Below are positions 30,744-59,937 of a stretch of 64,000 nt of DNA, piece after piece (within the stretch, counting starts at the first letter, position 1; every line of letters begins with the position of its first letter). The notes under the pieces were generated by a model. The model saw only the letters and a list, made by a program, of their open reading frames with translations, was not told the origin of the DNA and searched no databases. The stretch is taken from the NCBI RefSeq assembly GCF_055900595.2, contig NZ_CM148325.1. One strand, given 5' to 3'. The position numbers and the translations under genes were made by a program.

Positions 30744-31081
30744 CGCGGGAAATGCAGTTTGTCATGCGGCTTGCCCGGGAGTTCCGGCGGGCAGACTGGC
30801 GGCGGATGCTGTCGGAAATGTCGGCCACTGAGCTTGGTGAGTGGGGCGATTATTTCCGGATGCAGAGCTTCAGTGATGTGTGGATGGATGCGCAGTTTGC
30901 CTCGCTGAAGGCATTGATCGTGAGAATGGTGTCCGGCAGCAGTGATGCTGCGGTGGCTGATTTCAGCCTTTTACCGGAAGAGAACGGGATACCGGAGCGA
31001 ACGGACGAAGAACTGATGCATCTTGGGGAAGGTATTTCCGGAGGTGTGCGTTATGGACCAGATAGCCAACCTGGTCATTGA
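30677..31081 (+). CDS. Tail assembly protein T segment (expected as G-T fusion via -1 frameshift)
   Basis: -1 frame is open from 30677 across the G stop into the T-like ORF. Confidence 0.7.
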
Positions 31082-34000
31082 TTTGGGGATTGATGCGGCA
31101 GAGTTTAAAAATGAAATTCCCCGTATCAAAAACCTTCTGAATGGTGCAGCCAGCGATGCAGAACGGTCTTCTGCCCGTATGCAGCGTTTTATGGAGCGTC
31201 AGACTCAGGCCGCCCGGCAGACAACGCAGGCAGCTTCTTCGGCTGCAACAGCCGCATCCGTCCATGCGCAGACGGTGGAGAAGAACGCACAGGCTCATGA
31301 ACGCATGGCCCGCGAGGTGGAGAAAACCCGCCAGCGCATGGAGGCACTGAGCCAGAAAATGCGCGAGGAACAGGCGCAGGCCATCGCTCTGGCGGAGGCT
31401 CAGGATAAAGCGGCTGCTGCGTTTTATCGTCAGATTGACAGTGTGAAACAGGCCAGTGCGGGGCTGCAGGAATTACAGCGTATTCAGCAGCAGATCCGAC
31501 AGGCCAGAAACAGTGGCGGGATTGGTCAGCAGGATTATCTGGCGCTGATTTCTGAGGTTACGGCGAAAACCCGTGTTCTTACGCAGGCTGAGGCAGAGGC
31601 TACCCGACAGAAAGTGGCGTTTATCCGTCAGCTTAAAGAGCAGGCAACCCGCCAGAATCTTTCTTCTTCTGAGTTGCTTCGTGCCAGGGCTGCCCAGCTG
31701 GGGGTAAGCAGTGCTGCAGAAGTGTATATCCGCAAAATGGAGCGGGCAGGAAAAGCCACGCATTCGCTGGGTCTGAAAAGTGCAGCGGCCCGCCAGGAGA
31801 TAGGCGTTCTGATAGGTGAACTGGCCCGCGGCAATTTAGGGGCGCTGAGGGGATCCGGGATAACGCTGGCTAACCGTGCCGGATGGATAGACACACTGAT
31901 GTCACCGAAAGGCATGATGCTGGGCGGGGTTATTGGCGGTATTACCGCGGCCGTCTATGGTCTGGGTAAAGCCTGGTATGACGGTCAGAAGGAGGGGGAA
32001 GAATTTAACCGCCAGCTGTCGCTGACGGGGCATTATGCCGGAGTCACTGCCGGGCAGCTGTGGACGCTCAGTCGTGCTATTTCCGGGAATGGTATCACGC
32101 AACATGCTGCAGCCGGTGCGCTGGCTCAGGTGGTGGGGAGTGGTGCATTTCGTGGAAACGATATCGGTATGGTGGCGAGAGCTGCCGCACAGATGGAGCG
32201 ATCGGTTGGCCAGTCGGTCAGCGATACCATAAATCAGTTTAAGCGGCTGAAGGATGATCCTGTAAATGCCGCGAAGTCTCTGGACAATGAGCTGCATTTT
32301 CTTACTGCCACTCAGCTTGAGCAGATACGCGTCCTTGGAGAGCAGGGGCGGTCCAGTGATGCGGCACGGATAGCCATGTCTGCACTGGCAGAGGAAACCG
32401 GTCGGCGTACTGCGGATATTGATAATAACCTCAATGCGCTGGGCAGTACGCTGCAAACTTTGTCTGACTGGTGGAAGCAGTTCTGGGATGCGGCCATGAA
32501 TATTGGTCGTGAAGATTCGCTGGATGCGCAGATTGCCACTTTGCAGGAGAAAGTGTCGCGGGCGAAAAGACTCCCCTGGACGGCATCATCTTCTCAGGTT
32601 GAATACGATCAGCAGCGTCTTAACGATCTTCAGGAGAAAAAACGCCAGAAGGATTTGCAGGATGCAAAAGAGCAGGCAGAGCGGAATTATCAGGAGCAAC
32701 AGAAACGCCGTAATGCTGAAAATGCTGCACTGAACCGGATGAATGAAACGGAAGCTGCACGACATCAGCGTGAAATTGCGCGTATTAATGCCATGCAGTA
32801 CGCCGATCAGGCTGTCAGGGATGCGGCGATACAACGTGAAAATGAACGTTACGAGAAAGCCCTGGCATCCGGTAAGAAAAAAACACGCGAAACCCGTAAT
32901 GATGAGGCCACCCGGTTATTGCTGCAGTACAGTCAGCAACAGGCACAGGTGGAAGGACAGATTGCTGCTGCCAGACAGTCAGCAGGCATTGCCACGGAAA
33001 GGATGACAGAAGCGCATAAACAGCTCCTGGCTCTGCAGCAGCGCATCAGCGACCTGGACGGGAAAAAACTGACGGCAGATGAAAAGAGTGTGCTGGCCCG
33101 TAAAGATGAACTGATTCAGGCACTGACGCTGCTGGATGTAAAACAGCAGGAGCTTCAGAAACAGACGGCACTCAACGAGCTGAAGAAAAAACAATTCAGC
33201 TGACCAGTCAACTGGCTGAAGAAGAGCGCGCTCAGCGTCAGCAACATGACCTGGATATCGCCACGGTGGGTATGGGTGATCAGCAGCGACAGCGATATCA
33301 GGTACAACTGAGTCTTCGCCAGAAATACCAGCAACAGCTGGAGCAGTTGAGGCGGGATAGTGAGCAGAAAGGGACATATAACACGGATGACTACAGAAAG
33401 GCCGAGCAGGCGCTGACGGAGAGCCTGAACCGACAACTGAATGAGAATCGCCGTTACTGGCAACAGCTTGAAGTTGTGCAGGGTAACTGGAAAAACGGAG
33501 TCCTGCGTGCATTTCAGGATTTTACCGTGGATGCAGATAATACGGCAGAAACAGCAGAACAGGTGTTCTCGTCAGCCTTCAGCAACATGGGAAATGGCCT
33601 GGCAACTTTTGTCACTACCGGCAAACTCAATTTCAAATCCTTCACCTCTTCTGTGCTGTCAGATATGGCGAAAATCCTGGCGCAGGCAACCATGATGAAA
33701 TCGATAAAAGGGATTGGCAGTGTACTGGGATTTGATCTCAGCAGCCTTTCCCTGAATGCCAATGGGGGGATTTATCAGTCTGCTGATTTGAGTCGTTACA
33801 GTGGCACGGTGGTTAACCGTCCGACGTTTTTTGCTTTTGCAAAAGGCGCGGGTGTGATGGGGGAAGCGGGACCTGAAGCCATTCTGCCATTGCGTCGTGG
33901 TGCTGACGGTAAGCTGGGGGTTGTGGCGGATATTGGGGGTTCAGGTATGGCGATGTTTTCCCCGCAGTACAACATCGAGATCAATAACGATGGCACGAAC

Positions 34001-34117
34001 GGGCAGATAGGTCCGGCTGCCCTGAAGGCGGTTTATGACCTCGGGAAAAAAGCGGCAGCGGACTTTATGCAACAGCAGGCCCGTGATGGTGGTCGGTTAA
34101 GTGGAGCATATCGGTAA
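31053..34117 (+). CDS. Tail tape measure protein (gpH-like), interrupted by an apparent frameshift near 33186-33203
   Basis: Two consecutive ORFs (frame 0 to 33203, -1 frame open from 33110) both with tape-measure character; GGAGGTG RBS before ATG 31053. Confidence 0.8.
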
Positions 34118-34446
34118 TGGAGACGTTTCACTGGAAAGTGCGCCCGGATATGAATGTGGTATCAGAGCCGAAAGTGGTGACAGTGAAGCTGGGCGATGGT
34201 TATGAACAGCGTCGTGCGGCGGGACTGAATAACCAGTTGTCGACTTACAGCGTGACGATACGTGTTCGTAAATGTGAACACCCATCTTTAAAAGCCTTTC
34301 TGGAACGGCACGGTGGCGTCCGTGCATTTCAGTGGACGCCACCTTATGACTGGAAACCGATCAGGGTGGTTTGTCGTAAATGGTCGGCAAGCGTGGGGGC
34401 GCTGTGGGTAACCATAACGGCAGATTTTGAACAGGTCGTGGCATAG
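34117..34446 (+). CDS. Minor tail protein M
   Basis: METFHWKVRPDMNVVSEP... matches lambda M. Confidence 0.9.
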   Translation: METFHWKVRPDMNVVSEPKVVTVKLGDGYEQRRAAGLNNQLSTYSVTIRVRKCEHPSLKAFLERHGGVRAFQWTPPYDWKPIRVVCRKWSASVGALWVTITADFEQVVA

Positions 34447-34455
34447 GAGGCTCTG

Positions 34456-35154
34456 ATGCAGGATATTCCACAGGAAACACATCATGAGACGACACGCCTC
34501 ACTCAGTCAGCCCAGGTGGTGCTCTGGGAAATCGATCTGACAGAGGTCGGTGGTGAACGTTATTTTTTCTGTAATGAGCAGAACGAAAAAGGTGAGCCGG
34601 TTACCTGGCAGGGGCGGCAGTATCAGGCATACCCCATTCAGGGGACGGGATTTGAACTGAACGGCAAGGGCAGTGCTGCCCGTCCGACACTGACGGTTTC
34701 TAACCTGCACGGAATGGTCACCGGGATGGCGGAAGACCTGCAGAGTCTGGTCGGCGGAACGGTGGTCAGGCGTAAGGTTTACGCCCGTTTTCTGGATGCG
34801 GTGAACTTCGTCAACGGAAACAGTGACGCCGATCCGGAGCAGGAGGTGATCAGCCGCTGGCGCATCGAGCAGTGCAGCGAACTGAGCGCGGTCAGTGCCT
34901 CTTTTGTACTGTCCACGCCGACGGAAACGGACGGTGCTGTTTTTCCGGGACGTATTATGCTGGCCAACACCTGCACCTGGACCTATCGCGGCGATGAGTG
35001 CGGTTATAGCGGTCCGGCGGTCGCGGATGAATATGATCAGCCGACGTCCGATATCACGAAGGATAAATGCAGCAAATGCCTGAGCGGCTGTAAGTTCCGC
35101 AATAACGTCGGCAACTTTGGCGGTTTTCTTTCCATTCACAAACTTTCGCAGTAA
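34456..35154 (+). CDS. Minor tail protein L
   Basis: Lambda L-like, conserved Cys cluster at the C-terminus. Confidence 0.9.
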   Translation: MQDIPQETHHETTRLTQSAQVVLWEIDLTEVGGERYFFCNEQNEKGEPVTWQGRQYQAYPIQGTGFELNGKGSAARPTLTVSNLHGMVTGMAEDLQSLVGGTVVRRKVYARFLDAVNFVNGNSDADPEQEVISRWRIEQCSELSAVSASFVLSTPTETDGAVFPGRIMLANTCTWTYRGDECGYSGPAVADEYDQPTSDITKDKCSKCLSGCKFRNNVGNFGGFLSIHKLSQ

Positions 35155-35158
35155 TTCC

Positions 35159-35902
35159 ATGACAGAGACAGAATCAGCGATTCTGGCGCACGCCCGGCGA
35201 TGTGCGCCAGCGGAGTCGTGCGGCTTCGTGGTGAGAGCGCCGGAGGGGGAAAGATATTTCCCCTGCGTGAATATCTCCGGTGAGCCGGAGGCGTATTTCC
35301 GGATGTCGCCGGAGGACTGGCTGCAGGCAGAGATGCAGGGTGAGATTGTGGCACTGGTCCACAGTCACCCCGGTGGTCTGCCCTGGCTGAGTGAGGCCGA
35401 CCGGCGGCTGCAGGTGCAGAGTGATTTGCCGTGGTGGCTGGTTTGCCGGGGAGCGATTCACAAGTTCCGCTGTGTGCCACATCTTTCCGGGCGGCGCTTT
35501 GAGCACGGGGTGACGGACTGTTACACGCTGTTCCGGGATGCTTACCATCTGGCGGGGATTGAGATGCCGGATTTTCATCGCGAGGATGACTGGTGGCGTA
35601 ACGGTCAGAATCTCTATCTGGATAATCTGGAGGCCACAGGGCTGTATCAGGTGCCGTTGTCAGCGGCGCAGCCGGGCGATGTGCTGCTGTGCTGTTTTGG
35701 TTCATCGGTGCCGAATCATGCCGCCATTTACTGTGGTGACAGCGAGCTGCTGCACCATATTCCTGAACAACTGAGCAAACGAGAGAGGTACACCGACAAA
35801 TGGCAGCGACGCACACACTCCCTCTGGCGTCACCGGGCATGGCACGCATCTGCCTTTACGGGGATTTACAACGATTTGGCCGCCGCATCGACCTTCGAGT
35901 GA
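35159..35902 (+). CDS. Tail assembly protein K (MPN/JAB plus NlpC/P60-like)
   Basis: VALVHSHPGG motif; lambda K-like. Confidence 0.9.
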   Translation: MTETESAILAHARRCAPAESCGFVVRAPEGERYFPCVNISGEPEAYFRMSPEDWLQAEMQGEIVALVHSHPGGLPWLSEADRRLQVQSDLPWWLVCRGAIHKFRCVPHLSGRRFEHGVTDCYTLFRDAYHLAGIEMPDFHREDDWWRNGQNLYLDNLEATGLYQVPLSAAQPGDVLLCCFGSSVPNHAAIYCGDSELLHHIPEQLSKRERYTDKWQRRTHSLWRHRAWHASAFTGIYNDLAAASTFE

Positions 35903-36447
35903 AAACGGGGTCCGAAGCCATCCGGGCGCTGGCCATGCAGATCCCGGCGTTTCGTCAGAAACTGAGCGACGGCTGGTACCAGGTACGCATTGCCGGGCGT
36001 GATGCCGGTGAAACCGAATTGTCTGCCCGTCTTAATGAGCCGCTGGCAAATGGTGCCGTGATCCACATCGTGCCGCGTCTGGCGGGAGCTAAAAGTGGCG
36101 GTGTGTTTCAGGTGGTGCTGGGGGCGGCGCTGATTGCGGTGGCATGGTGGAACCCTGTGGGCTGGCTGGGAGCCGCGGCTGTATCGGGTATGTATGCGGC
36201 AGGGGCCAGTATGATCCTGGGCGGAGTGGCGCAGATGCTGGCACCGAAAGCCAGGACGCCCACGGCAGCAAGTACAGATAACGGCAAACAGAACACCTAT
36301 TTCTCCTCACTGGATAACATGGTTGCCCAGGGCAATGTTCTGCCCGTTCTGTACGGTGAAATGCGCGTGGGGTCGCGGGTGGTCTCTCAGGAGATCAGCA
36401 CGGCAGACGAAGGGGATGGTGGTCAGGTTGTGGTGATTGGTCGCTGA
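35800..36447 (+). CDS. Tail assembly protein I
   Basis: MAATHTLPLASPGMARICLYGDLQRFG... matches lambda I; overlaps K. Confidence 0.9.
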   Translation: MAATHTLPLASPGMARICLYGDLQRFGRRIDLRVKTGSEAIRALAMQIPAFRQKLSDGWYQVRIAGRDAGETELSARLNEPLANGAVIHIVPRLAGAKSGGVFQVVLGAALIAVAWWNPVGWLGAAAVSGMYAAGASMILGGVAQMLAPKARTPTAASTDNGKQNTYFSSLDNMVAQGNVLPVLYGEMRVGSRVVSQEISTADEGDGGQVVVIGR

Positions 36448-36507
36448 TGAAAAACGTTTTATGTGAAACCGCCTCCGGGCGGTTTTGTCGTTTATGGAGC
36501 GTTAGGA

Positions 36508-39500
36508 ATGGGTAAAGGCAGCAGTAAGGGGCATACTCCGCGCGAAGCGAAGGACAACCTGAAGTCCACGCAGTTGCTGAGTGTGATCGATGCCATCAGC
36601 GAAGGGCCGGTTGAAGGTCCGGTAGATGGATTAAAAAGCGTGCTGCTGAACAGTACGCCAGTGCTGGACATTGAGGGGAATACCAACATCTCCGGCGTCA
36701 CGGTGGTGTTCCGGGCCGGTGAGCAGGAGCAAACACCGCCGGAGGGATTTGAATCCTCCGGCTCCGAGACGGTGCTGGGTACGGAAGTGAAATACGACAC
36801 GCCGATCACCCGGACCATCACGTCGGCAAACATTGACCGACTGCGTTTTACCTTCGGCGTGCAGGCACTGGTGGAAACCACCTCAAAGGGGGACAGGAAT
36901 CCGTCGGAAGTCCGCCTGCTGGTTCAGATACAACGTAACGGTGGCTGGGTGACGGAAAAAGACATCACCATTAAAGGCAAAACCACCTCACAGTATCTGG
37001 CCTCGGTGGTGGTGGGTAACCTGCCGCCGCGCCCGTTCAATATCCGGATGCGCAGGATGACGCCGGACAGCACCACAGACCAACTGCAGAACAAAACGCT
37101 CTGGTCGTCATACACCGAAATCATCGATGTGAAACAGTGCTACCCGAACACGGCACTGGTTGGCGTGCAGGTGGACTCGGAGCAGTTCGGCAGCCAGCAG
37201 GTGAGCCGTAATTATCATCTTCGCGGGCGCATTCTGCAGGTGCCGTCGAACTATAACCCGCAGACGCGGCAATACAGCGGTATCTGGGACGGAACGTTAA
37301 AACCGGCATACAGCAACAACATGGCCTGGTGTCTGTGGGATATGCTGACCCACCCGCGCTACGGCATGGGGAAACGTCTTGGTGCGGCAGATGTGGATAA
37401 ATGGGCGCTGTATGTCATCGGCCAGAATTGCGACCAGTCGGTGCCGGACGGCTTTGGCGGTACGGAGCCGCGCATCACCTGTAACGCTTACCTGACCACA
37501 CAACGTAAGGCGTGGGATGTGCTCAGTGATTTCTGCTCGGCGATGCGCTGTATGCCGGTATGGAGCGGGCAGACGCTGACGTTCGTGCAGGACCGACCGT
37601 CGGATAAGGTGTGGACCTATAACCGCAGTAATGTGGTGATGCCGGATGATGGCGCGCCGTTCCGCTACAGCTTCAGCGCCCTGAAAGACCGCCATAATGC
37701 CGTTGAGGTGAACTGGATTGACCCGGATAACGGCTGGGAGACGGCAACAGAGCTTGTGGAGGACTCGCAGGCCATTGCCCGTTACGGTCGTAACGTCACG
37801 AAGATGGATGCCTTTGGCTGTACCAGCCGGGGGCAGGCACACCGCGCCGGGCTGTGGCTGATTAAAACGGAGCTGCTGGAAACGCAGACGGTGGACTTCA
37901 GCGTGGGTGCCGAAGGGCTTCGCCATGTGCCGGGCGATGTTATTGAAATCTGCGATGATGACTATGCCGGTATCAGCATCGGTGGTCGCGTGCTGGCGGT
38001 GAACAGCCAGACCCGGACGCTGACGCTCGACCGTGAAATCACGCTGCCATCCTCCGGCACCACGCTGATAAGCCTGGTTGACGGTGAGGGTAATCCGGTC
38101 AGCGTGGAGGTCCAGTCCGTCACCGACGGCGTGAAGGTGAAAGTGAGCCGTGTTCCTGACGGCGTTGCTGAATACAGCGTGTGGGGGCTGAAGTTGCCGA
38201 CGTTGCGCCAGCGCCTGTTCCGCTGCGTGAGTATCCGTGAGAACGACGACGGCACGTATGCCATCACTGCCGTGCAGCATGTACCGGAGAAAGAGGCCAT
38301 CGTGGATAACGGGGCGCACTTTGACGGTGACCAGAGCGGCACGGTGAATGGTGTCACGCCGCCAGCAGTGCAGCACCTGACCGCAGAAGTCACTGCAGAC
38401 AGCGGGGAATATCAGGTGCTGGCGCGATGGGACACACCGAAGGTGGTGAAGGGCGTGAGCTTCCTGCTTCGCCTGACCGTGGCAGCGGATGACGGCAGTG
38501 AGCGGCTGGTCAGCACGGCCCGGACGACGGAAACCACTTACCGCTTCACACAACTGGCTCTGGGGAACTACAGGCTGACAGTCCGGGCAGTAAATGCGTG
38601 GGGGCAGCAGGGCGATCCGGCGTCGGTATCGTTCCGGATTGCCGCACCGGCAGCGCCGTCGCGGATTGAGCTGACGCCGGGCTATTTTCAGATAACCGCC
38701 ACGCCGCATCTTGCGGTTTATGATCCGACGGTACAGTTTGAGGTCTGGTTCTCGGAAAAACGGATTGCTGATATCAGGCAGGTTGAAACCAGCGCGCGTT
38801 ATCTTGGTACGGCGCTGTACTGGATAGCCGCCAGTATCAATATCAAACCGGGTCGTGATTATTACTTTTATATCCGCAGTGTGAACACCGTCGGCAAATC
38901 GGCATTCGTGGAGGCTGTTGGTCGGGCGAGCGATGATGCGGAAGGTTACCTGGATTTTTTCAAAGGCCAGATAACCGAATCCCATCTCGGCAAGGAGCTG
39001 CTGGAAAAAGTCGAGCTGACGGAGGATAACGCCAGCAGACTGGAGGAGTTTTCGAAAGAGTGGAAGGACGCCAGTGATAAGTGGAATGCCATGTGGGGCG
39101 TCAAAATTGAGCAGACCAAAGACGGCAAACATTATGTCGCGGGTATTGGCCTCAGTATGGAGGATACAGAGGAAGGCAAACTGAGTCAGTTTCTGGTTGC
39201 CGCCAATCGTATCGCGTTTATTGACCCGGCAAACGGGAATGAAACGCCGATGTTTGTGGCGCAGGGCAACCAGATATTCATGAACGACGTGTTCCTGAAA
39301 CGCCTGACGGCCCCCACCATTACCAGCGGCGGTAATCCTCCGGCATTTTCCCTGACACCGGATGGGCGGCTGACGGCGAAAAATGCCGATATCAGCGGTA
39401 ACGTGAATGCGAACTCCGGGACGCTCAACAACGTCACGATTAACGAGAACTGTCGGGTTCTGGGAAAACTGTCCGCGAACCAGATTGAAGGCGATCTCGT

Positions 39501-39903
39501 TAAAACAGTGGGCAAAGCTTTCCCCCGGGACTCCCGTGCACCGGAGCGGTGGCCATCAGGGACCATTACCGTCAGGGTTTATGACGATCAGCCGTTTGAC
39601 CGGCAGATTGTTATTCCGGCGGTGGCATTCAGCGGCGCTAAACATGAGAGAGAGCATACTGATATTTACTCCTCATGCCGTCTGATAGTGCGGAAAAACG
39701 GTGCTGAAATTTATAACCGTACCGCGCTGGATAATACGCTGATTTACAGTGGCGTTATTGATATGCCTGCCGGTCACGGTCACATGACGCTGGAGTTTTC
39801 GGTGTCAGCATGGCTGGTAAATGACTGGTATCCCACAGCAAGTATCAGCGATTTGCTGGTTGTGGTGATGAAGAAAGCCACCGCAGGCATCAGTATCAGC
39901 TGA
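36508..39903 (+). CDS. Host specificity protein J (central tail fibre)
   Basis: Near-identical to lambda J over most of its length as I recall it; C-terminal about 150 aa diverge. Confidence 0.9.
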
Positions 39904-39922
39904 ATTTTATAACCCATATACG

Positions 39923-39946
39923 GGCGCCAGAAATGGCGCCTTTTTT
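39923..39946 (+). terminator. Rho-independent terminator after J
   Basis: gggcgccagaaatggcgcctttttt. Confidence 0.7.
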
Positions 39947-39970
39947 ATTGCAGAAAAGCGAGAGGTAATT

Positions 39971-40570
39971 ATGCGTAAAGTTTGTGCAGCCATTTTGTCC
40001 GCAGCCATCTGTCTGTCCGTATCCGGTGCGCCTGCATGGGCATCTGAACATCAGTCCACGCTGAGCGCGGGGTATCTTCATGCCTCGACGAACGTTCCCG
40101 GCAGCGATGATCTTAACGGGATTAACATGAAATACCGTTATGAGTTTACGGACACACTGGGGCTGGTGACGTCATTCAGCTATGCAGGAGACAAGAATCG
40201 CCAGCTTACCCGTTACAGCAATACCCGCTGGCATGAAGATTCCGTGCGTAACCGCTGGTTCAGCGTGATGGTGGGGCCGTCTGTGCGCGTGAATGAATGG
40301 TTCAGCGCGTATGCGATGGCGGGTATGGCTTACAGCCGTGTGTCGACTTTTTCCGGGGATTATCTCCGCGTAACTGACAATAAGGGGAAAACGCACGATG
40401 TGCTGACCGGAAGTGATGACGGTCGCCACAGCAACACGTCTCTGGCGTGGGGAGCTGGCGTGCAGTTTAACCCGACCGAATCCGTGGCCATTGATATTGC
40501 TTATGAAGGCTCCGGCAGTGGTGACTGGCGCACTGACGGTTTCATCGTGGGTGTCGGTTATAAATTCTGA
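39971..40570 (+). CDS. lom: Lom-like outer-membrane protein (Ail/Lom family)
   Basis: Signal peptide plus beta-barrel, ends with aromatic residue; lambda Lom-like. Confidence 0.85.
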
Positions 40571-40596: not shown

Positions 40597-40623
40597 AGCC
40601 CGCCGGTTCAGGCGGGCTTTTTG
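40597..40623 (+). terminator. Rho-independent terminator after lom
   Basis: agcccgccggttcaggcgggcttttt. Confidence 0.7.
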
Positions 40624-41330
40624 TGCACAGAAAACCCCCAGCTAGGCTGGGGGTTCCGGAAAGCTTTCAGCTTTGAGCCAGTTATTAAAACCCCTTTTGA
40701 TTTGTTAAAACACCTTGCGGTCTGGCAACTGCAAGTGTCAAACAAGAAATCAAAAGGGGGTCCCAATGGGGGACGAAAAGAGCTTAGCGCACACCCGCTG
40801 GAACTGTAAATATCACATAGTTTTTGCGCCGAAATACCGAAGACTGGCGTTTTACGGAGAGAAGCGTAGGGCGATAGGCAGTATTTTGAGAAAGCTGTGT
40901 GAGTGGAAAAGCGTACGGATTCTGGAAGCAGAGTGCTGCGCAGATCATATCCATATGCTTGTGGAAATCCCACCCAAAATGAGCGTATCCGGCTTTATGG
41001 GATATCTGAAAGGGAAAAGCAGTCTGATGCTTTACGAGCAGTTTGGGGATTTGAAATTCAAATACAGAAACAGGGAGTTCTGGTGCCGAGGGTACTATGT
41101 CGATACGGTGGGTAAGAACACGGCGAAGATACAGGACTACATAAAGCACCAGCTTGAAGAGGATAAAATGGGGGAGCAGTTATCGATTCCATATCCGGGC
41201 AGCCCGTTTACGGGCCGTAAGTAACGAAGTTGAATGCAAATGTCAGATCGTATGCGCCTGTTAGGGCGCGGCTGGTAACAGAGCCTTACAGGCGCATTTG
41301 AAAAACCTCCGGCTATGCCGGAGGATATTT
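40621..41330 (+). mobile_element. IS200-family insertion sequence (about 710 bp, boundaries approximate)
   Basis: Left-end hairpin cccccagctaggctggggg, second stem-loop over the RBS, tnpA, right-end hairpin cctccggctatgccggagg. Confidence 0.8.
40766..41224 (+). CDS. tnpA: IS200 transposase TnpA (HUH Y1 transposase)
   Basis: MGDEKSLAHTRWNCKYHIVFAPKYRR...HIHMLVEIPPKMSVS matches IS200 TnpA. Confidence 0.9.
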   Translation: MGDEKSLAHTRWNCKYHIVFAPKYRRLAFYGEKRRAIGSILRKLCEWKSVRILEAECCADHIHMLVEIPPKMSVSGFMGYLKGKSSLMLYEQFGDLKFKYRNREFWCRGYYVDTVGKNTAKIQDYIKHQLEEDKMGEQLSIPYPGSPFTGRK

Positions 41331-41345
41331 ATTTGTGGAGTGGAT

Positions 41346-43751
41346 ATGGCAGCAGTAAAAATCTCAGGTGTGCTGAAAGATGGTGCGGGAAAACCAATAC
41401 AGAACTGCACTATTCAACTGAAGGCAAAGCGTAACAGCACCACGGTACTGGTGAACACGGTGGCTTCTGAAAATCCGGATGAAGCCGGACGTTACAGCAT
41501 GGATGTTGAGTATGGCCAGTACAGCGTCACCCTGCTGGTTGAAGGTTTTCCGCCTTCACATGCCGGGACCATTACCGTCTATGAAGGCTCCAGACCAGGT
41601 ACGCTGAATGATTTTCTCGGTGCCATGACGGAAGATGATGTCATGCCGGAGGCATTGCGTCGTTTTGAGGCAATGGTGGAAGAAGTGGCACGCAACGCCG
41701 AAGCCGCCTCTCAGAGCGCAGCGGCGGCAAAGAAATCCGAAACTGCAGCGGCATCATCAAAGAACGCGGCGAAAACCTCAGAAACGAATGCAGCTAATAG
41801 TGCACAGGCGGCAGCGACCTCAAAGACTGCATCGGCAAACTCCGCGACAGCAGCCAAAAAATCAGAAACCAACGCGAAAAATAGCGAGACAGCCGCAAAG
41901 ACGAGCGAAACCAACGCAAAGTCCAGCCAGACGGCAGCGAAAACCAGCGAAACGAATGCCAAAGCCAGTGAAACTGCGGCAAAAAACAGCCAGGTTGCAG
42001 CAGCCCAAAGCGAGAGCGCGGCAGCCGGTTCTGCGACTTCAGCAGCTGGATCAGCAACTGCTGCGGCTAACAGCCAGAAAGCTGCGAAGACGAGTGAAAC
42101 TAACGCAAAGTCCAGCCAGACGGCAGCGAAGACCAGCGAAACGAATGCCAAAACCAGCGAAACTGCGGCGAAAAACAGTCAGGATGCAGCAGCCCAAAGC
42201 GAGAGTGCTGCAGCTGGTTCTGCAAGCGCGGCGGCTGCTTCTGCCACTGCATCAGCTAACAGTCAAAAAGCAGCAAAAACCAGTGAAACCAACGCAAAGG
42301 CGAGCGAGACTGCGGCGGCGAACTCGGCGCAAGCATCGGCAGCAAGCCAGACAGCAGCTAAAGCAAGTGAAGACGCAGCCAGAGAGTATGCAAGCCAGGC
42401 AGCGGAGCCGTATAAACAAGTTTTGCAGCCGTTGCCCGATGTGTGGATACCGTTTAATGATTCACTGGATATGATTACGGGCTTTTCGCCATCATATAAA
42501 AAAATTGTTATTGGCGACGATGAAATAACAATGCCTGGCGACAAGATTGTAAAGTTTAAACGCGCATCGAAAGCAACTTACATTAATAAATCTGGTGTGC
42601 TGACAGAGGCTGCCATTGACGAGCCACGATTTGAACGTGATGGCCTGCTTATTGAGGGGCAAAGAACTAACCTGCTAATCAATTCAACAAATCCGACTAA
42701 ATGGAACAAGTCGTCAAATATGATCTTAAGTGCATCAGGTGTAGATGATTTCGGATTCCAGTACGCAAAATTTACATTAAAACCAGAAATGGTAGGGCAA
42801 ATTTCAGCGATTAACATAGTAACCGTTTCCGGCAGTAAAGGTTTTGATGTAACAGGCGGAGAAAAGTATGTAACCATATCATGCAGGGTGCAAAGTGGCA
42901 CTCCAAATTTAAGATGCCGATTACGATTTGAAAACTATGATGGTTCTACCTACACATTCTTAGGTGACGCTTACTTAAATACGACAGATTTATCTATTGA
43001 TAAGACGGGTGGTGCCGCTAATCGCATTACTGCAAGGGCTGTTAAAGATGAAGCAAGCAAATGGATCTTTTTTGAGGCGACAATTAAGGCACTTGATACA
43101 GAAAATATGATAGGTGGAATGGTTCAGTATGCCCCGGCAAAAGGAGTGGGCACTGGCGCGGATGATTATATTTATATTGCGACCCCTCAAGTTGAAGGTG
43201 GGGCGTGCGCTTCATCGTTTATTATAACAGGCGCATCCCCTGTAACACGCGCCAGCGATATTGTGACGGTCCCCATTTCTCTAAATTGGTGCAATCCCGC
43301 TATTAGTTCATTAGCAGAAGTTAATACCAATTGGGATGAATCGCCAAACAAAGAAGGTAGCGCACGTATTCTTAATATTTCCACTACGGGAGATACAACT
43401 GAAATTGCAGATGAAAGTTATATGTATTTGGGGTATACATCTTTGGGAGCACGCGCAATCATTACAAATGGTAAAGGCACTAAAATAGAATATAAAAGCG
43501 TTATAGAACGACCAGAGAGAAAAAGCATTATCGGCTTTAGATTCACAGAAAGTCGAGAATTGTGTGTTGTGGTTAACGGTAATATTGGTGCTAAGGTAGT
43601 TTCTCCTTATAAAAAACACAAATATACAGGAGGCTTCATTAATATTGGTGGTCAATCATCATCCGGCAACCGTCACCTATTTGGACACGTTCGAAATCTG
43701 CGTATTTGGCACAAGGCATTGACTGATGCTCAGATGGGGGAGTCAATCTAA
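41346..43751 (+). CDS. Side tail fibre protein (Stf-like)
   Basis: N-terminus MAAVKISGVLKDGAGKPIQNCTIQLKAKRNSTTV matches Stf; Ala/Ser/Thr-rich repeats; divergent C-terminal domain. Confidence 0.85.
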   Translation: MAAVKISGVLKDGAGKPIQNCTIQLKAKRNSTTVLVNTVASENPDEAGRYSMDVEYGQYSVTLLVEGFPPSHAGTITVYEGSRPGTLNDFLGAMTEDDVMPEALRRFEAMVEEVARNAEAASQSAAAAKKSETAAASSKNAAKTSETNAANSAQAAATSKTASANSATAAKKSETNAKNSETAAKTSETNAKSSQTAAKTSETNAKASETAAKNSQVAAAQSESAAAGSATSAAGSATAAANSQKAAKTSETNAKSSQTAAKTSETNAKTSETAAKNSQDAAAQSESAAAGSASAAAASATASANSQKAAKTSETNAKASETAAANSAQASAASQTAAKASEDAAREYASQAAEPYKQVLQPLPDVWIPFNDSLDMITGFSPSYKKIVIGDDEITMPGDKIVKFKRASKATYINKSGVLTEAAIDEPRFERDGLLIEGQRTNLLINSTNPTKWNKSSNMILSASGVDDFGFQYAKFTLKPEMVGQISAINIVTVSGSKGFDVTGGEKYVTISCRVQSGTPNLRCRLRFENYDGSTYTFLGDAYLNTTDLSIDKTGGAANRITARAVKDEASKWIFFEATIKALDTENMIGGMVQYAPAKGVGTGADDYIYIATPQVEGGACASSFIITGASPVTRASDIVTVPISLNWCNPAISSLAEVNTNWDESPNKEGSARILNISTTGDTTEIADESYMYLGYTSLGARAIITNGKGTKIEYKSVIERPERKSIIGFRFTESRELCVVVNGNIGAKVVSPYKKHKYTGGFINIGGQSSSGNRHLFGHVRNLRIWHKALTDAQMGESI
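41901..42278 (+). repeat. Tandem direct repeat (about 189 bp x2) inside stf
   Basis: acgagcgaaaccaacgcaaagtccagccagacggcagcgaaaaccagcgaaacgaatgcc... repeated with few substitutions. Confidence 0.75.
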
Positions 43752-44032
43752 TGAAAGATTTAACACTCAAATTTGCCGACAGGGCCGACTTTTCGGCTTT
43801 TATGGGAAGTATTGGCTATTATAATGACGAGTCGATGCAGGATGATATTCTGATTGATGTGATAGGTAACGTGTACAAAGAAACCGGAGAGCTGACTGAA
43901 GATGGCGAACCGGTATGTGTTAAGGAAGATGGATATTTTGTAAACGTGCGCATCATTAAGGATACGCAAATATCGTCATTATTCGATGAATACGCGGTTG
44001 CTGTTGAGCATCAACTTCGTGGCTGGATGTGA
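43751..44032 (+). CDS. Hypothetical tail-fibre-associated protein (93 aa)
   Basis: ORF starting at the stf stop. Confidence 0.5.
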   Translation: MKDLTLKFADRADFSAFMGSIGYYNDESMQDDILIDVIGNVYKETGELTEDGEPVCVKEDGYFVNVRIIKDTQISSLFDEYAVAVEHQLRGWM

Positions 44033-44041
44033 GGTAGAGAA

Positions 44042-44746
44042 ATGGCTACATCAACAGTAATTCCGGGAGACATCACCACGCTGAAGGGAGATGTTAGTAA
44101 AGCAAAGGAAGATATTTCCTCTATTAACGGAAAAGTATCAACGCTTCAGACTGATATGGCCAGTGCAAAGCAGGATATCAGCACCAGATACACAAAAACT
44201 GAAGTTGATAATAAGCTGAAAAACAAAGTGGAAGTGAACGATCTGGAAAGTGGTCGTTATGGCGGAGATTTTTACCCGCTGACTGGCCGTGAAGCGTTTT
44301 ATTTATGGGGATTGGGCACAACTACAGCGGCGGCAAATCTTTATCTTAATCCTGACCCTGCAATTTCGTCTGTGCTGCGGTCAACATCGTCTATCCGCTA
44401 TAAACATTCAGTAGAGACGATAGATTCAGAGCACGCCGATCTCATTTTCAGGATGCGCCCTGTGTGGTACAGGTCGCAATGCGAAAATGACAGGCGTGAC
44501 TGGGGATTCTATGGATTGATTGCCGAGGAAGTTGGAGAAATTGCCCCTCAGTTTGTTCACTGGCGACCAGCCAACGAAGATGATGCACCGGAAACCATTT
44601 CCAGCAATGGCCTTGTTGCCGAAGGTGTAATGTACGAACGTCTGGTTGTTCCACTGATTCACCATATCCAGAAGCTGACTGAAAGAGTTGATGAACTTGA
44701 GTCAGAATTAAAGTTGTTATCCGTTTCCCGAAGCGATATCGGATAA
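44042..44746 (+). CDS. Tail-fibre-related protein with C-terminal chaperone-like (S74-type) domain
   Basis: N-terminal coiled-coil; C-terminal GFYGLIAEEVGEIAPQFVHWRP resembles the intramolecular chaperone domain of fibre/spike proteins. Confidence 0.5.
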   Translation: MATSTVIPGDITTLKGDVSKAKEDISSINGKVSTLQTDMASAKQDISTRYTKTEVDNKLKNKVEVNDLESGRYGGDFYPLTGREAFYLWGLGTTTAAANLYLNPDPAISSVLRSTSSIRYKHSVETIDSEHADLIFRMRPVWYRSQCENDRRDWGFYGLIAEEVGEIAPQFVHWRPANEDDAPETISSNGLVAEGVMYERLVVPLIHHIQKLTERVDELESELKLLSVSRSDIG

Positions 44747-44756
44747 AGGAGGCGTA

Positions 44757-45050
44757 ATGGATATAACACCTTTCCTTCATGCACTTTGTGCTGTGGCTGC
44801 GCAGGTACTGGTTGGTCTTTTTACCGGAAACTGGGCTTACGGGGCGATAGCTGGTTGTACGTTCTTCATTGCGCGTGAACATACCCAGGCAGAATATCGC
44901 TGGATTGAAATGTTCGGGCATGGCAAGCGTATGAATATGCCGTGGTGGGGCGGTTTTGATCCGCGTGCGTGGGATGTGGCAAGCCTGATGGATTTTGCTG
45001 TGCCGGTGGTGGCGTGTCTGCTGGTCTGGCTGTTGGTTAATCGTGGGTGA
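44757..45050 (+). CDS. Small membrane protein (97 aa, 2 TM)
   Basis: RBS AAGGAGG before the ATG; two hydrophobic helices. Confidence 0.5.
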   Translation: MDITPFLHALCAVAAQVLVGLFTGNWAYGAIAGCTFFIAREHTQAEYRWIEMFGHGKRMNMPWWGGFDPRAWDVASLMDFAVPVVACLLVWLLVNRG

Positions 45051-45064
45051 AAAAAGGTGAGCTG

Positions 45065-45178
45065 TATATGCAACGGAGGAAGAAACCTCGTTGCGGGAAG
45101 CCTTGAAGAAGTATCGGGTGTTGCTGAACCGTGTTGATACGTCAACTGCACAGGATATTGAATGGCCAGCACTGCCGT
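45065..45178 (+). pseudogene. Remnant of a tail fibre assembly gene (Tfa C-terminus only)
   Basis: Translation [34 protein letters not shown] matches the conserved Tfa C-terminus; no N-terminal part. Confidence 0.65.
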
Positions 45179-45277
45179 AGGGTAAAACATATAAATTCTA
45201 TAATTAGATGTATCTTTCCATTTACGGCAAGGAAGGGGGCTTGGAAGACGTAAGGCATCTCACACCGAGATTATTTT

Positions 45278-45868
45278 TTATATGTCAGGTGTCTGAAGTT
45301 TTGCTTTGGCTCTTAAAATGGTTTGCCGCGAGGTTTTGAATTCCCGGGCAATGGCACTTATACTTACACCTGACTTAATCCGTTCGAATACCACCTGTTT
45401 CTGTTCTTCATTTAACACAGGTGGTCGACCAAAACGTTTCCCTGCGCCCCGGGCTCTTACTATCCCGGAATGAGTGCGTTCAAGTAAAAGGTCTCGTTCA
45501 AATTCAGCGACTGCTGAAATTACTTGCATCATCATTTTTCCTGTTGGACTGGTCAGGTCAATGCCCCCCAATGCTAAGCAATGCACTCTGATACCTGTTT
45601 CGGTCAGTTGTTCCACTGTTTTCCTGATATCCATTGCATTACAACCAAGGCGATCCAGTTTTGTCACAATCAATTGATCACCACATTTCAGGCGAGCAAG
45701 CAACCGGTTAAAACCAGGACGCTCACTGGTTGCTGCTGAGCCGCTAATGTGTTCTTCGATTATTTGCTGAGGTTTGATTTTAAAACCTGCACTTTCGATT
45801 TCCCGGCGTTGATTTTCGGTGGTCTGATCCAGCGTTGATATCCGACAGTAAGCAAAAATTCGAGACAT
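45278..45868 (-). CDS. pin: Pin-type serine DNA invertase
   Basis: [29 protein letters not shown]... matches PinQ/PinR as I recall them. Confidence 0.9.
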
Positions 45869-46418: not shown

Positions 46419-47203
46419 GAATATATTCCTTAAAATATTATTGATTTTCATTGCGATATTGTATGTCTGATTCAGGATATGTTGACTTATACATCGGTTT
46501 TGTCTGGGTTATTGGATATGCCAATCCCTAATTTTATTAGAGCATGACTAAAAATGCTGAATATGATAAGGAGCGAAGTGATTATCAGTATGCTGTTCAT
46601 ATAGCCTCGAATTATTAATGTGTTATATATGATATAGTTGACAATTTTTATCCTGGGTGTTCTTAAAGTTCGTAGATAAACATTGTCGTTTCAGGTATAC
46701 AGGAATGCTAACAGATGGCGGCAAAAATCAGGCGGTTTATGGCGCAAGCTGAAGTGGCAACTGCAAACTATCTTATGCAGAGACTCTACACGGATTGGGT
46801 TTAAAAGTATACATAGATAACAGTTTTTATCTGAAGAAGAAAAATATCAAGGTGATATAGCCTATATGCCTTTGATGCGGAGGAATGAATGTGATGGGAG
46901 TGATGTATCTGAATAGTTGAAAAACCGCAGACACGCCTTATGCAAGAACGTGCTGCGGTTGGCTGGTAAATTTTTCGATAGTGCGAGTATTGAATGATTT
47001 CCAGCCGTTATTGATTTTACGCGTAACTCCATGAAAAAACTACTTATCTGTTGAGGAGTTTTTTTGGGGCATATATGGGACAGAAATAGGCCCCAGATAG
47101 ACACTGAGATCGAACTTAGGATGCTTTTTAAAAAATGCAACTATCTGAAAAAACCTAGAAAACGCCAAGGAAACCACAGGATGGGAAAAAACACCTGTGA
47201 ATC

Positions 47204-48487
47204 ATGGATTTCCAGTTATATTCGCTCGGCGCAGCGTTAGTGTTTCATGAAATATTTTTTCCTGAATCATCAACGGCAATGGCGTTAATTCTGGCAATGG
47301 GAACCTACGGTGCAGGTTATGTGGCGCGTATTGTCGGAGCATTTATTTTCGGCAAAATGGGCGACAGAATCGGGCGTAAAAAAGTGCTCTTTATTACCAT
47401 CACTATGATGGGGATCTGTACCACCTTAATTGGTGTGCTGCCGACCTATGCACAAATTGGTGTGTTTGCGCCAATTTTGCTGGTGACGCTGCGTATTATT
47501 CAGGGGCTGGGGGCAGGCGCGGAAATTTCCGGTGCCGGTACGATGCTGGCGGAATATGCGCCAAAAGGTAAGCGCGGAATTATCTCCTCATTTGTTGCTA
47601 TGGGGACTAACTGCGGAACCTTGAGCGCAACGGCAATCTGGGCCTTTATGTTCTTCATTCTCAGTAAAGAGGAACTGTTGGCGTGGGGATGGCGTATACC
47701 GTTCCTGGCGAGCGTTGTCGTGATGGTCTTTGCTATCTGGTTGCGTATGAATCTGAAAGAAAGCCCGGTCTTTGAGAAGGTTAACGACAGCAACCAACCG
47801 ACAGCAAAACCTGCACCTGCTGGTAGCATGTTCCAGAGCAAATCCTTCTGGCTGGCAACAGGGCTGCGTTTTGGTCAGGCTGGTAACTCAGGTTTAATTC
47901 AGACTTTCCTTGCAGGCTATTTAGTGCAGACGTTATTGTTTAACAAAGCAATTCCAACAGATGCATTGATGATCAGTTCGATTCTCGGCTTTATGACCAT
48001 TCCGTTCCTTGGTTGGTTATCCGATAAAATTGGTCGCCGGATCCCGTATATTATTATGAATACCTCTGCGATTGTGCTGGCGTGGCCAATGCTTTCTATC
48101 ATCGTAGATAAAAGCTATGCCCCGAGCACCATTATGGTTGCACTGATTGTGATTCATAACTGTGCGGTGCTGGGATTATTTGCTCTGGAAAACATTACCA
48201 TGGCAGAAATGTTCGGCTGTAAAAACCGCTTTACCCGGATGGCCATTTCTAAAGAAATTGGTGGTCTTATCGCTTCCGGTTTTGGTCCTATCCTGGCGGG
48301 TATTTTCTGCACCATGACGGAATCCTGGTATCCGATCGCCATTATGATCATGGCATATTCAGTGATTGGTTTAATCTCTGCGCTGAAAATGCCAGAAGTG
48401 AAAGACCGTGATTTAAGTGCACTGGAAGATGCCGCGGAAGATCAACCGCGTGTTGTAACAGCTGCGCAACCTTCAAGAAGTCTGTAA
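47204..48487 (+). CDS. ydfJ: MFS transporter YdfJ, 5'-truncated by the prophage insertion
   Basis: 427-aa MFS ORF starting at the prophage/host junction; matches the ydfJ C-terminal fragment. Confidence 0.8.
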   Translation: MDFQLYSLGAALVFHEIFFPESSTAMALILAMGTYGAGYVARIVGAFIFGKMGDRIGRKKVLFITITMMGICTTLIGVLPTYAQIGVFAPILLVTLRIIQGLGAGAEISGAGTMLAEYAPKGKRGIISSFVAMGTNCGTLSATAIWAFMFFILSKEELLAWGWRIPFLASVVVMVFAIWLRMNLKESPVFEKVNDSNQPTAKPAPAGSMFQSKSFWLATGLRFGQAGNSGLIQTFLAGYLVQTLLFNKAIPTDALMISSILGFMTIPFLGWLSDKIGRRIPYIIMNTSAIVLAWPMLSIIVDKSYAPSTIMVALIVIHNCAVLGLFALENITMAEMFGCKNRFTRMAISKEIGGLIASGFGPILAGIFCTMTESWYPIAIMIMAYSVIGLISALKMPEVKDRDLSALEDAAEDQPRVVTAAQPSRSL

Positions 48488-48576
48488 ATCCTCCATCCCT
48501 TCTCTTACCGGAGAGGGGATTTTTTATTCATATAACAAAACATGCAGCTTGCCATATTTAAATTTAAGGAATTGTT

Positions 48577-50037
48577 ATGGGAAATAATTTGTTATCAGCA
48601 AAAGCGACGCTCCCTGTTTATGATCGTAATAACCTGGCCCCAAGAATTGTTCATTTAGGCTTTGGTGCATTTCACCGTGCGCATCAGGGCGTGTATGCCG
48701 ATATTCTTGCTACGGAACATTTCAGTGACTGGGGATATTATGAGGTCAATTTAATCGGCGGCGAACAGCAAATTGCCGATTTACAACAGCAAGATAATCT
48801 TTATACCGTTGCGGAAATGTCGGCCGATGCGTGGACGGCTCGCGTCGTTGGCGTCGTTAAAAAAGCCTTGCACATACAAATAGATGGCTTAGAAACCGTG
48901 CTGGCTGCGATGTGTGAACCGCAAATCGCGATTGTCTCTCTGACAATCACCGAAAAAGGGTATTTCCACTCTCCGGCGACCGGACAGTTAATGCTCGATC
49001 ACCCGATGGTCGTTGCCGACGTGCAAAATCCCCACCAGCCGAAAACTGCAACAGGGGTGATTGTTGAGGCGCTGGCTCGCCGTAAAGCGGCAGGACTTCC
49101 CGCATTTACCGTCATGTCATGTGACAACATGCCAGAAAACGGTCATGTTATGCGTGACGTTGTCACTTCCTACGCGCAAGCTGTTGATGTAAAACTGGCA
49201 CAATGGATCGAAGAAAACGTGACTTTCCCATCAACAATGGTGGACCGTATTGTGCCCGCAGTGACGGAGGATACGCTGGCGAAAATCGAACAACTTACCG
49301 GTGTGCGCGATCCTGCTGGCGTTGCCTGTGAACCTTTCCGCCAGTGGGTAATAGAAGATAACTTTGTTGCCGGACGTCCGGAATGGGAAAAAGCGGGAGC
49401 CGAACTGGTTAGTGATGTGCTGCCTTATGAAGAGATGAAGTTGCGCATGCTCAACGGCAGTCATTCATTCCTGGCGTATCTGGGGTATCTTGCCGGATAT
49501 CAGCACATTAATGACTGCATGGAAGATGAACATTATCATCATGCAGCGTATGCCTTGATGTTGCAGGAACAAGCGCCCACGCTGAAAGTGCAGGGCGTTG
49601 ATTTGCAAGATTACGCTAACCGATTAATTGAACGCTATAGCAACCCGGCGCTACGTCATCGAACCTGGCAGATTGCGATGGATGGCAGCCAGAAATTGCC
49701 ACAGCGGATGTTGGATTCTGTTCGCTGGCATCTGGCGCATGACAGCAAGTTCGATCTGCTGGCGCTGGGCGTCGCGGGTTGGATGCGTTATGTCGGTGGT
49801 GTTGATGAACAGGGAAATCAGATAGAAATCAGTGACCCACTGTTACCTGTTATTCAGAAGGCAGTACAAAGTAGTGCTGAAGGGAAAGCGCGCGTCCAGT
49901 CATTGCTGGCGATTAAGGCGATCTTTGGTGATGATTTACCGGGCAATAGCTTGTTTACTGCAAAAGTGACGGAAGCGTACTTGTCTTTATTAGCGCATGG
50001 CGCAAAAGCGACCGTGGCGAAATATTCCGTGAAGTAA
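48577..50037 (+). CDS. ydfI: Mannitol/mannonate dehydrogenase family oxidoreductase
   Basis: 486 aa with N-terminal Rossmann motif [11 protein letters not shown]. Confidence 0.85.
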
Positions 50038-50072
50038 AAAAAGCAATGCCGCCATCGGCGGCATTCACACGC

Positions 50073-50276
50073 TTAGTTCATGCCGAGACGAATCAGGTCC
50101 AGAGGTGCCAGTTTCTCTTCACAACCTTCAACAACTACGGTTTTTCCGCGGCGGATTTGCTCAGCGGTCAGACCTTCAGTATCAATCGACAGGATCTTGC
50201 CAGTGTGACCGGTGCCGCTAACCATAACACGGCTGCCAGTGGTGATTGCGTTACGGTTACGATCGTAGGTCGTCAT
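50073..50276 (-). CDS. ydfZ: Small protein YdfZ
   Basis: 67-aa [32 protein letters not shown]... Confidence 0.75.
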
Positions 50277-50452
50277 AGGTGTTTTCTCCTTTCTGATTTA
50301 CAGTCGAAGCCCACGTAACGGGCGCAATATAAATACTCCTGTCGAGTGAAATATTTTTTGTTTTTGATCAAGCTCACATCTTTTTTGATGCATGCATGAG
50401 CCATATGACGGAGGGAAAAACTCTCACCCCGGATGGGATGAGAGGAAATGAA

Positions 50453-51139
50453 TTACTCTTCGCTAAACCAGTCGCTGTTTTCCTGGCGGATCTGGCGCAC
50501 GGATTCGCTGATTTCCTGCAAATGTTGCGTCATTGCACGTTCTACCGCATCGCCATCACGTTTTTGCAGGGCAGAGAAAATATCAAGATGCTGGCGTAAC
50601 AGCATTTCTGGTGGAGAAACGTGGTCGAAACTCATATAGCGCACGCGATCAACGGTCGCTTTCAGGTTCTCAATGGTATCCCACGCCAGTTGACAGTCGG
50701 CAATCTGCGTCAGGAGTTGATGGAAGTTGTCATCAAGTTCAAAAAAATCATCCAGTTGCTTGCGCTCAATGGCAATGCGTTGCTGGTGAAGATTTTGTTC
50801 CAGTTGGTAGCACTGGCTTTCGGTAATCATGCTCGCCGCCCGACGCGCCACCGCGCACTCAATGGCCTGACGGATAAAACTGCAGTTGCGCACCTGGGCC
50901 ATGGAAATTTTGTTGACGTAGCTGCCACGCTGCGGACGAATTTGAATCAGGCCGTTTTCCGCCAGTTTAATAAAGGCTTCACGAACCGGCTGGCGTGACA
51001 CATTGAAACGAACAGAAACTTCTTTTTCCGACAACGGTGTGCCTGGTGCAATCAGGCAATGGACAATGTCGCGGCGAAGAATACGATAAATCTGCTGATT
51101 GACAGGCTGTGTGGGATTAAGTTGCGTTTCGACGGTCAT
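50453..51139 (-). CDS. rspR: GntR/FadR-family transcriptional regulator
   Basis: N-terminal GntR HTH, FadR-like C-domain; ydfH/rspR position. Confidence 0.8.
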
Positions 51140-51227
51140 TCGTTCTTGCTTGTGAGTGAGTTAACTGCATGAGTCTACCACTTTTTTGTGACAAGCAATA
51201 ACCCGGCAGTTACGCCGGGTATAAAAA

Positions 51228-51974: not shown

Positions 51975-52110
51975 CTCACTGTTCCTCAACGCTTTTGTGT
52001 GTCAATAACATAGCACGTGATGCTTAAGAGCGGGTAATACTGGTTTGCAAGATTGCACTCCGTTATCAGTAAGCCTACGCTATGGAACACCTCGCGTTCA
52101 GGAGAAGAAA

Positions 52111-54156: not shown

Positions 54157-54200
54157 ACACAACCAATGGCTGTCCTGGAGATATCGCCAGGCCAGCCTGG

Positions 54201-54719: not shown

Positions 54720-54994
54720 TGTTTTTTGTCCACGCTATTATATGTAAAGGTGATTTGCTTTTTCTGTATGCTCGTCCAATATAATAATTTTCAAACATAT
54801 AAATCCGATTATTCTGAAAATATGTTTAAGACTCTTCAATCTTCTTAACTTTAGTGAGTTAAATTCTCTGAATATTTGACAGCTAGTTGGCTGATTTTAA
54901 ATGCCTTATAACAATTGGCAGTATTCTTATTTGGCAATTATAAAAATAGCAACCAGACTTAATAAGTCAAACCAAACGCAATTAAGGAGTTAGT

Positions 54995-55387: not shown

Positions 55388-55641
55388 AAATAAATTAGCC
55401 TGATGGCCTGAACTACTGGGCCATTAGGGTATTGGGTTATGCTATTTGTCATCCTTTTAATTGCGATAATGCAGAGTTAATTTATAGAATTAAACACTTT
55501 TTTATCTGCTGATTTTGTTTTAAATCACAATGTTATCTCAGAGATGGCTCATAACTTCGGATTTCTATGAAAATATTGACGTAATTTTGCTTTTCTCTCG
55601 TTAGAATAGCGCGCACAAGGAACTGTGAAAAAGGAGTGGCA

Positions 55642-56532: not shown

Positions 56533-56577
56533 GCTCCGTTTAACATTCATTGAGAAAACTGATGCTACTGTGTCAAC

Positions 56578-59918: not shown

Positions 59919-59937
59919 CGTCATACCTCTTTTTTGT

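Follow-up and report, generated by a model that had tools for sequence, protein, structure and literature searches.

The J gene of the E. coli prophage in the window, by which we mean the whole 64,000-nucleotide stretch of DNA that was analysed (contig NZ_CM148325.1 of NCBI RefSeq assembly GCF_055900595.2), encodes a lambda-type body that carries a widespread receptor-binding domain (RBD) of the 1A2 type. With high confidence, we propose that this RBD is OmpC-binding and not LamB-binding.

J lies in the tail gene cluster at the position of a gpJ gene, 3' of homologues of H, M, L, K and I and 5' of lom and the side-tail-fibre gene (stf). The gene order around J is identical in an annotated homologous prophage. 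The DNA is collinear with lambda over nt 33979-39453, and with phages 434 and 2G7b on through lom and stf. In the mechanical ORF list the J frame opens at GTG 36463 (36463..39903, + strand, ~3.4 kb). From ATG 36508 the product has 1131 aa with the N-terminus MGKGSSKG and ends at the stop codon 39901-39903. The Pfam domains FNIII-A_GpJ, Phage-tail_3, Ig_J, Ig_J_second, Phage_Tail_Tip and Ig_GpJ_C follow each other in this order, every one above its cut-off. With the full domain series at full length, collinear with lambda J, the product is a lambda-type gpJ. Other ORFs overlap this region (39186..39566, - strand; 39407..39685, + strand; 37297..39132, - strand). These were set aside because the codons of the J frame are conserved one for one in many phage homologues. 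The parts of the gene are:

36508..39903, + strand: gene J (tip attachment or central tail fibre protein), from the ORF list and its translation, collinear with lambda J
36508..39387, + strand: lambda-type J body, residues 1-960 (hub, FNIII/Ig domains, helical shaft and beta-prism fibre), from protein and DNA identity
39388..39453, + strand: conserved linker, residues 961-982, holding the putative recombination junction, from identity across six J proteins and the DNA change point
39454..39900, + strand: RBD of the 1A2 type, residues 983-1131, from identities, PF12421, phmmer and the 1A2 codons

The real lambda J was fetched from GenBank OM418625 (locus L001:3046-6444) and aligned globally with the window's J. 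The two proteins, of 1132 and 1131 aa, align with one 1-aa gap overall. Identity is 97.6% over residues 1-982 (958/982) and falls to 42% from residue 983 to the end (63/150; Fisher p = 5e-66). On the DNA level, the J body is ~95% identical to lambda and the megablast match stops at nt 39453. The maximum-likelihood DNA change point was found at nt ~39428, with 95.4% identity to lambda on its left and 58.7% on its right (Fisher p = 8e-99). The break between the lambda-like and the divergent part of J is sharp and lies at nt ~39428-39453. An earlier note on this DNA had claimed that J tracks lambda J and diverges over the last ~150 aa. The global alignment bears this out, and the coordinates given there for the divergent part (39460-39903) are right to ~10 codons on the 5' side and exact on the 3' side. 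While the C-terminus is not lambda-like, it is not unrelated either: it is a homologue of the lambda domain, aligning with it end to end.

The divergent J end is the gpJ C-terminal RBD, an Ig-like beta-sandwich as in lambda and A8 gpJ. PF12421 (Ig_GpJ_C) matches J residues 1001-1131 over the whole profile (positions 1-135 of 135) with 128.1 bits against a cut-off of 26.2. In a phmmer search of the PDB sequences, the whole 200 residues aligned with A8 gpJ 713 (9wca/9wcb, E = 1e-82) and lambda gpJ (8xcj/8xck, E = 7e-62). J residues 932-1131 were modelled with AlphaFold2 as a monomer, on an alignment of 7 sequences. The model has a mean pLDDT of 71 and carries no interface information; over the beta-sandwich its pLDDT is 80-95. 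The upstream fibre part, which folds only as a trimer, was modelled with low confidence. With the RBD model as query, the top four Foldseek matches in the PDB were 9wca, 8xck, 8xcj and 9wcb (E 1e-17 to 1e-19; query-normalised TM-score 0.60-0.63). A non-homologous foreign domain at the J C-terminus is ruled out by the Pfam, PDB and fold evidence. The divergent stretch coincides with residues 960-1132 of lambda J, the known specificity region (PMC6646904).

Comparison with further phages revealed a mosaic pattern. Identities to the window's J over body (1-960), linker (961-982) and RBD (983-1131) are as follows:

lambda: body 97-98%, linker 86%, RBD 42%
434: body 96-98%, linker 91%, RBD 42%
2G7b: body 96-98%, linker 100%, RBD 99%
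Stx2a_1447 (O157): body 56-82%, linker 100%, RBD 99%
phi330: body 34-82%, linker 95%, RBD 61%

The RBD thus behaves as an exchangeable cassette, since it is 99% identical on the divergent Stx2a body, while lambda and 434 share the body (96-98%) and not the RBD. Across the six J proteins compared, linker identity stays at 86-100% regardless of the type of body or RBD. The graft point chosen by Brödel et al., lambda residue 964, falls within this conserved stretch (PMC11338833).

Very many E. coli prophages carry this RBD version. A tblastn search of a phage collection with the last 166 aa of J found copies with 1-2 aa differences in 2G7b, PhiR55_1 (1 difference), PhiR5_1 and many O157 lambda-like Stx1a/Stx2a phages. 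Of 5426 complete E. coli genomes searched with nt 39454-39903 by megablast, 3396 gave matches (median copy number 2). In 833 records the identity was at least 99%, and some were exact. The phage phi330 was considered as a carrier of the same RBD version and rejected, its RBD being of the A8 type and 59% identical.

The window's RBD is the version that Brödel et al. (Nature 2024) named 1A2 gpJ. Two C-termini of natural prophage origin, "A8" and "1A2", were joined in that study to lambda gpJ at residue 964, and the chimeras were tested (PMC11338833). The published GpJ 1A2 DNA was taken from the text of the supplement PDF, which is machine-read and contains 11 frameshift errors, and was therefore compared by a custom frameshift-aware protein-to-DNA alignment. 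The exact DNA and protein strings of the window were not found in the supplements of Brödel et al., where the 1A2 tail has different codons and machine-read indels. Plain tblastn against the 1A2 text gave only fragmented hits, split over two frames. Counted from residue 941 to the C-terminus, the window and 1A2 agree at 174 of the 183 readable codons (95%). In the same alignment the window was 70% identical to A8, and lambda 52% identical to 1A2. Several of the 9 mismatches between the window and 1A2 adjoin reading errors. The true identity lies within 95-99%, and a few of the substitutions are real.

In MG1655 lacking both lamB and ompC, delivery by the 1A2 chimera depends on plasmid-borne OmpC (PMC11338833). 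At the top MOI, delivery exceeded 76% on 20 of 23 OmpC variants and failed on G1, G2 and G40 (PMC11338833). G1 is the OmpC of MG1655, as the G1 numbers are identical to those of the MG1655 panel. Wild-type MG1655 carries LamB and K-12 OmpC; in this host 1A2 reached 5% delivery compared to 98% for wild-type lambda under the same conditions (PMC11338833), indicating that 1A2 does not use LamB. 1A2 has since been applied to target O157 strains via EDL933 OmpC. Because the window's RBD is at least 95% identical to the tested 1A2 sequence, the receptor of the window's J is likely OmpC, in particular the variant of the O157/EDL933 type, and not LamB. The suggestion in the earlier note that this phage uses a receptor other than LamB thus gains support from homology to an OmpC user. 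For natural phages with this RBD (2G7b and the PhiR phages), no receptor was found in the literature; the PhiR phages are named only once, in a preprint about the defence nuclease SNIPE, which does not give one.

The J C-termini of six phages were aligned with that of the window. The beta-strands are conserved across all seven, and substitutions and all indels fall in residues 1007-1015, 1044-1052, 1072-1078 and 1101-1110. These four segments coincide with non-strand parts of the model and with four natural indel hot spots (PMC6646904):

39526..39552, + strand: variable loop 1, R1007-W1015 (RDSRAPERW), corresponding to the hot spot at lambda residue 1012 (PMC6646904)
39637..39663, + strand: variable loop 2, A1044-D1052 (AKHEREHTD), a beta-hairpin tip corresponding to the lambda 1048/49 hot spot
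39721..39741, + strand: variable loop 3, T1072-L1078 (TALDNTL), corresponding to the lambda 1077/78 hot spot
39808..39837, + strand: variable loop 4, A1101-T1110, with the polymorphic D1106 aligned with lambda D1107

Loop 1, which in the model lies in the non-strand segment 1004-1017, has 4 residues fewer in phi330/A8 and 2 more in 434. Loop 2 of the window, a predicted hairpin with its tip at 1049-1050, is 5-6 residues shorter than in phi330/A8 and 434. Loop 3 is poorly conserved, with a predicted turn at 1074-1076 and a 1-aa insertion in 434. The 1-aa deletion relative to lambda falls in loop 4. The lambda RBD inserts four loops at its bottom into LamB (PMC11101478). For phi330, AlphaFold3 predicts that hairpin E953-S962, the equivalent of loop 2, points into the OmpC barrel, and that hairpin A1015-P1020, the equivalent of loop 4, contacts the OmpC rim (PMC12502783).

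Residue 1106 in loop 4 varies among natural copies of this RBD: the window and PhiR55_1 have D there, Stx2a_1447 and 1A2 have N, and 2G7b has G. In lambda, D1107K at the aligned position is needed for the switch to OmpF (PMC6646904); lambda residue 1107 is not mentioned in PMC10999833. As D1106 (N in 1A2) sits in a receptor-contact loop and is homologous to lambda D1107, the range of OmpC variants accepted by the window's J may differ from that of 1A2. It is conceivable, though we think it rather unlikely, that the natural D/N/G variation at residue 1106 acts as a switch for the choice of OmpC variants by this RBD. In that case the thousands of copies in E. coli prophages would make up a fine-grained specificity series and not one version.

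The fold of the window's RBD is the same as that of the lambda RBD, and would also suit a domain that still binds LamB and has diverged by neutral drift or by adaptation to LamB variants. Sequence variation in J alone is no proof of a receptor change, as phage 21, whose J has 94% nucleotide identity to lambda J, uses LamB. However, 58% of the RBD residues differ from lambda and indels fall in the receptor-contact loops, and the near-identical 1A2 enters wild-type MG1655 poorly and works in delta-lamB cells with a suitable OmpC. We consider continued LamB binding extremely improbable. The RBD could instead bind another outer-membrane protein (e.g. OmpF), or another subset of OmpC variants than 1A2 does, through few substitutions, notably D1106. 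The natural variation at residue 1106, aligned with a lambda residue critical for the OmpF switch, fits such a shift, and in phage 21 J a single mutation leads to OmpC use, so that few changes can shift specificity. This reading is nevertheless very unlikely: the copies in O157 Stx phages, 2G7b and PhiR55_1 differ from the window's RBD at no more than 1-2 residues; both characterised versions of the group, 1A2 and A8/phi330, use OmpC, and nothing ties the group to OmpF.

The features downstream of J are:

39922..39947, + strand: terminator-like hairpin and T-run just 3' of the J stop codon, GGGCGCCAGAAATGGCGCCT then TTTTTT
39971..40570, + strand: lom (Ail/Lom outer-membrane protein, 199 aa), a non-lambda version (PF06316, E = 9e-120)
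40623-41328: IS200-family element, between lom and stf

Phage 434 has an annotated terminator at the place equivalent to the hairpin. The non-lambda DNA relative to lambda spans 39454-40442 and takes in most of lom, which thus shares one non-lambda segment with the RBD; lambda similarity is back only from nt 40443. The window's Lom is 44% identical to lambda Lom and 85-97% identical to Lom of 434, phi330, Stx2a_1447 and 2G7b. The prophage lies at the Qin site and is followed by a truncated ydfJ, then ydfI, dcp and the mar operon. In K-12 this site holds a cryptic remnant. As sequenced, the tape-measure gene is broken into two ORFs because a poly-A run at 33186-33191 lacks 1 nt (A6, vs A7 in an intact homologue with 98.9% identity).

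The split tape-measure gene, the IS200-family element and the location at the Qin site are all consistent with J being the relic of a defective prophage, whose specificity would have no current function in the strain while the cassette could still be donated by recombination. J itself, however, is a full-length open frame, and the same IS200 insertion was present in 15/15 E. coli matches to the region among the best matches listed. The frameshift lies in a homopolymer and is either a real inactivating mutation or a sequencing error. If it is real, the prophage makes no tails and the specificity of J is currently moot; the J of this prophage may never serve in a virion. We regard a relic as a serious possibility, somewhat short of even. 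It is compatible with an RBD of the OmpC type and is no replacement for an explanation of what the domain binds.

For the preferred reading, an OmpC-binding RBD of the 1A2 type on a lambda-type body, the following sequence of events can be proposed. The two parts would have been joined by recombination in the linker at residues ~961-982. In the J trimer, the RBDs would present their four loops to a trimeric outer-membrane porin. If the window's RBD behaves like 1A2, it would accept most OmpC variants of E. coli, the O157/EDL933 type among them, but not that of K-12. On the model of lambda, the three RBDs would move apart upon binding, a twist would travel up the fibre, and the tail tip would open and eject the DNA.

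The exchange of J C-termini and this RBD version are both already known, and the finding, though real, is an ordinary one. That the C-terminal specificity region of J is modular and evolves fast is textbook knowledge, and the region has been studied in more than 1200 natural homologues; this RBD version has already been cloned, tested and used in engineered particles against O157 E. coli. Its use lies in annotation: the likely receptor of a prophage J can be read from its last ~150 residues by comparison with a small characterised set, in which lambda and phage 21 use LamB and 434, A8/phi330 and 1A2 use OmpC.

Compared to these systems, the window's J shares with lambda gpJ (8xcj, 8xck; PMC11101478) a body with 96-98% identity and the Ig-like RBD fold with its four bottom loops; presumably the trimeric arrangement and the opening mechanism are shared as well. 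It differs from lambda, which uses LamB, in its RBD, where the 1-aa deletion falls in the loop of residue 1107. Phage 434 carries the classical h434 host-range allele, and its receptor is reported to be OmpC. Its J body (96-98%) and lom (97%) are highly similar to those of the window, whereas its RBD is 39-42% identical (two alignments) and has longer loops 1 and 2; by sequence, the 434 RBD appears to be an independent OmpC-binding version. A8 and phi330, which carry essentially the same version, have the domain family and fold of the window's RBD and provide the closest solved structure (phmmer E = 1e-82; Foldseek E = 1e-19), PDB 9wcb being A8 gpJ in complex with EDL933 OmpC. OmpC use by phi330 was established by Keio knockout and complementation (PMC12502783). 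Their RBD is, however, only 59-61% identical to that of the window, with a loop 1 shorter by 4 residues and a second hairpin longer by 5-6, and A8 accepts K-12 OmpC, which 1A2 rejects (PMC11338833). The loop lengths of 1A2 gpJ equal those of the window's RBD. The two differ at D1106 (N in 1A2), S1129 (T) and R1048 (K), although misread letters in the machine-read text may account for some of the apparent differences. The copy in the window is natural and resides in a prophage, while the 1A2 copy was tested in engineered lambda particles (PMC11338833; bioRxiv 10.1101/2025.02.28.640725). The window's J and the engineered 1A2 chimera are alike in their construction, both having a 1A2-type RBD on a lambda-type J body.

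Comparison with strain Z1323HEC0355 assigned the end of the window to host chromosome. In the flank, a truncated ydfJ (47204-48487) is followed by ydfI, dcp and marC, in this order, and the lambda-like E. coli prophage therefore lies at the Qin (ydfJ) site. The features considered here are:

31023-34117, tape-measure gene, split into two ORFs by a frameshift at 33186-33191
39971-40570, lom (Ail/Lom outer-membrane protein gene), non-lambda version
40623-41328, inserted IS200-family element of ~706 bp, absent from this site in lambda, 434 and 2G7b
41298-45868, side-tail-fibre region
45278-45868, minus strand, 196-aa ORF, located where the homologous prophage has a recombinase-family gene
~46900-64000, host chromosome flanking the prophage

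The two tape-measure ORFs lie in different frames because a poly-A run (33186-33191) has lost one nucleotide: it is A6 in the window and A7 in an intact homologue (1021 aa; 98.9% DNA identity to the window gene). The frameshift either is an inactivating mutation, in which case the prophage would be tail-defective, or reflects a sequencing error in the homopolymer. A 611-aa ORF was also noticed antisense to the tail-tip protein gene J (37297-39132, minus strand). Since the J frame is kept codon for codon in many phage homologues, this ORF is probably not a gene; most likely it is a side effect of J codon composition.

The ~706-bp insertion codes for an IS200-family Y1 transposase (PF01797) and is located between the lom terminator and the start of the side-tail-fibre gene stf; lambda, 434 and 2G7b are all uninterrupted at this site. 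Similarity to lambda stf begins ~20 bp downstream of the element, and the insertion could uncouple stf from late transcription. All 15 top-listed E. coli matches, ST131 strains among them, carry the same IS200C insertion here. Within the side-tail-fibre region, an ORF of 817 aa begins with a prophage tail-fibre N-terminal domain and contains a direct repeat of ~250 bp (41880-42128 and 42069-42317 cross-match in blast). It is followed by several small ORFs and then the minus-strand 196-aa ORF. As judged from gene layout, this arrangement resembles that of invertible tail-fibre segments.

Non-lambda DNA (39454-40442) covers the receptor-binding domain of J and also the greater part of lom. For the J-to-lom region, the best match in the complete E. 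coli collection reached at most 96.6%, and the collection therefore does not include the strain from which the window comes. While the window Lom shares only 44% protein identity with lambda Lom, it is 85-97% identical to Lom of 434, phi330, 2G7b and an O157 Stx2a phage, so that lambda Lom is the outlier among the compared phages.
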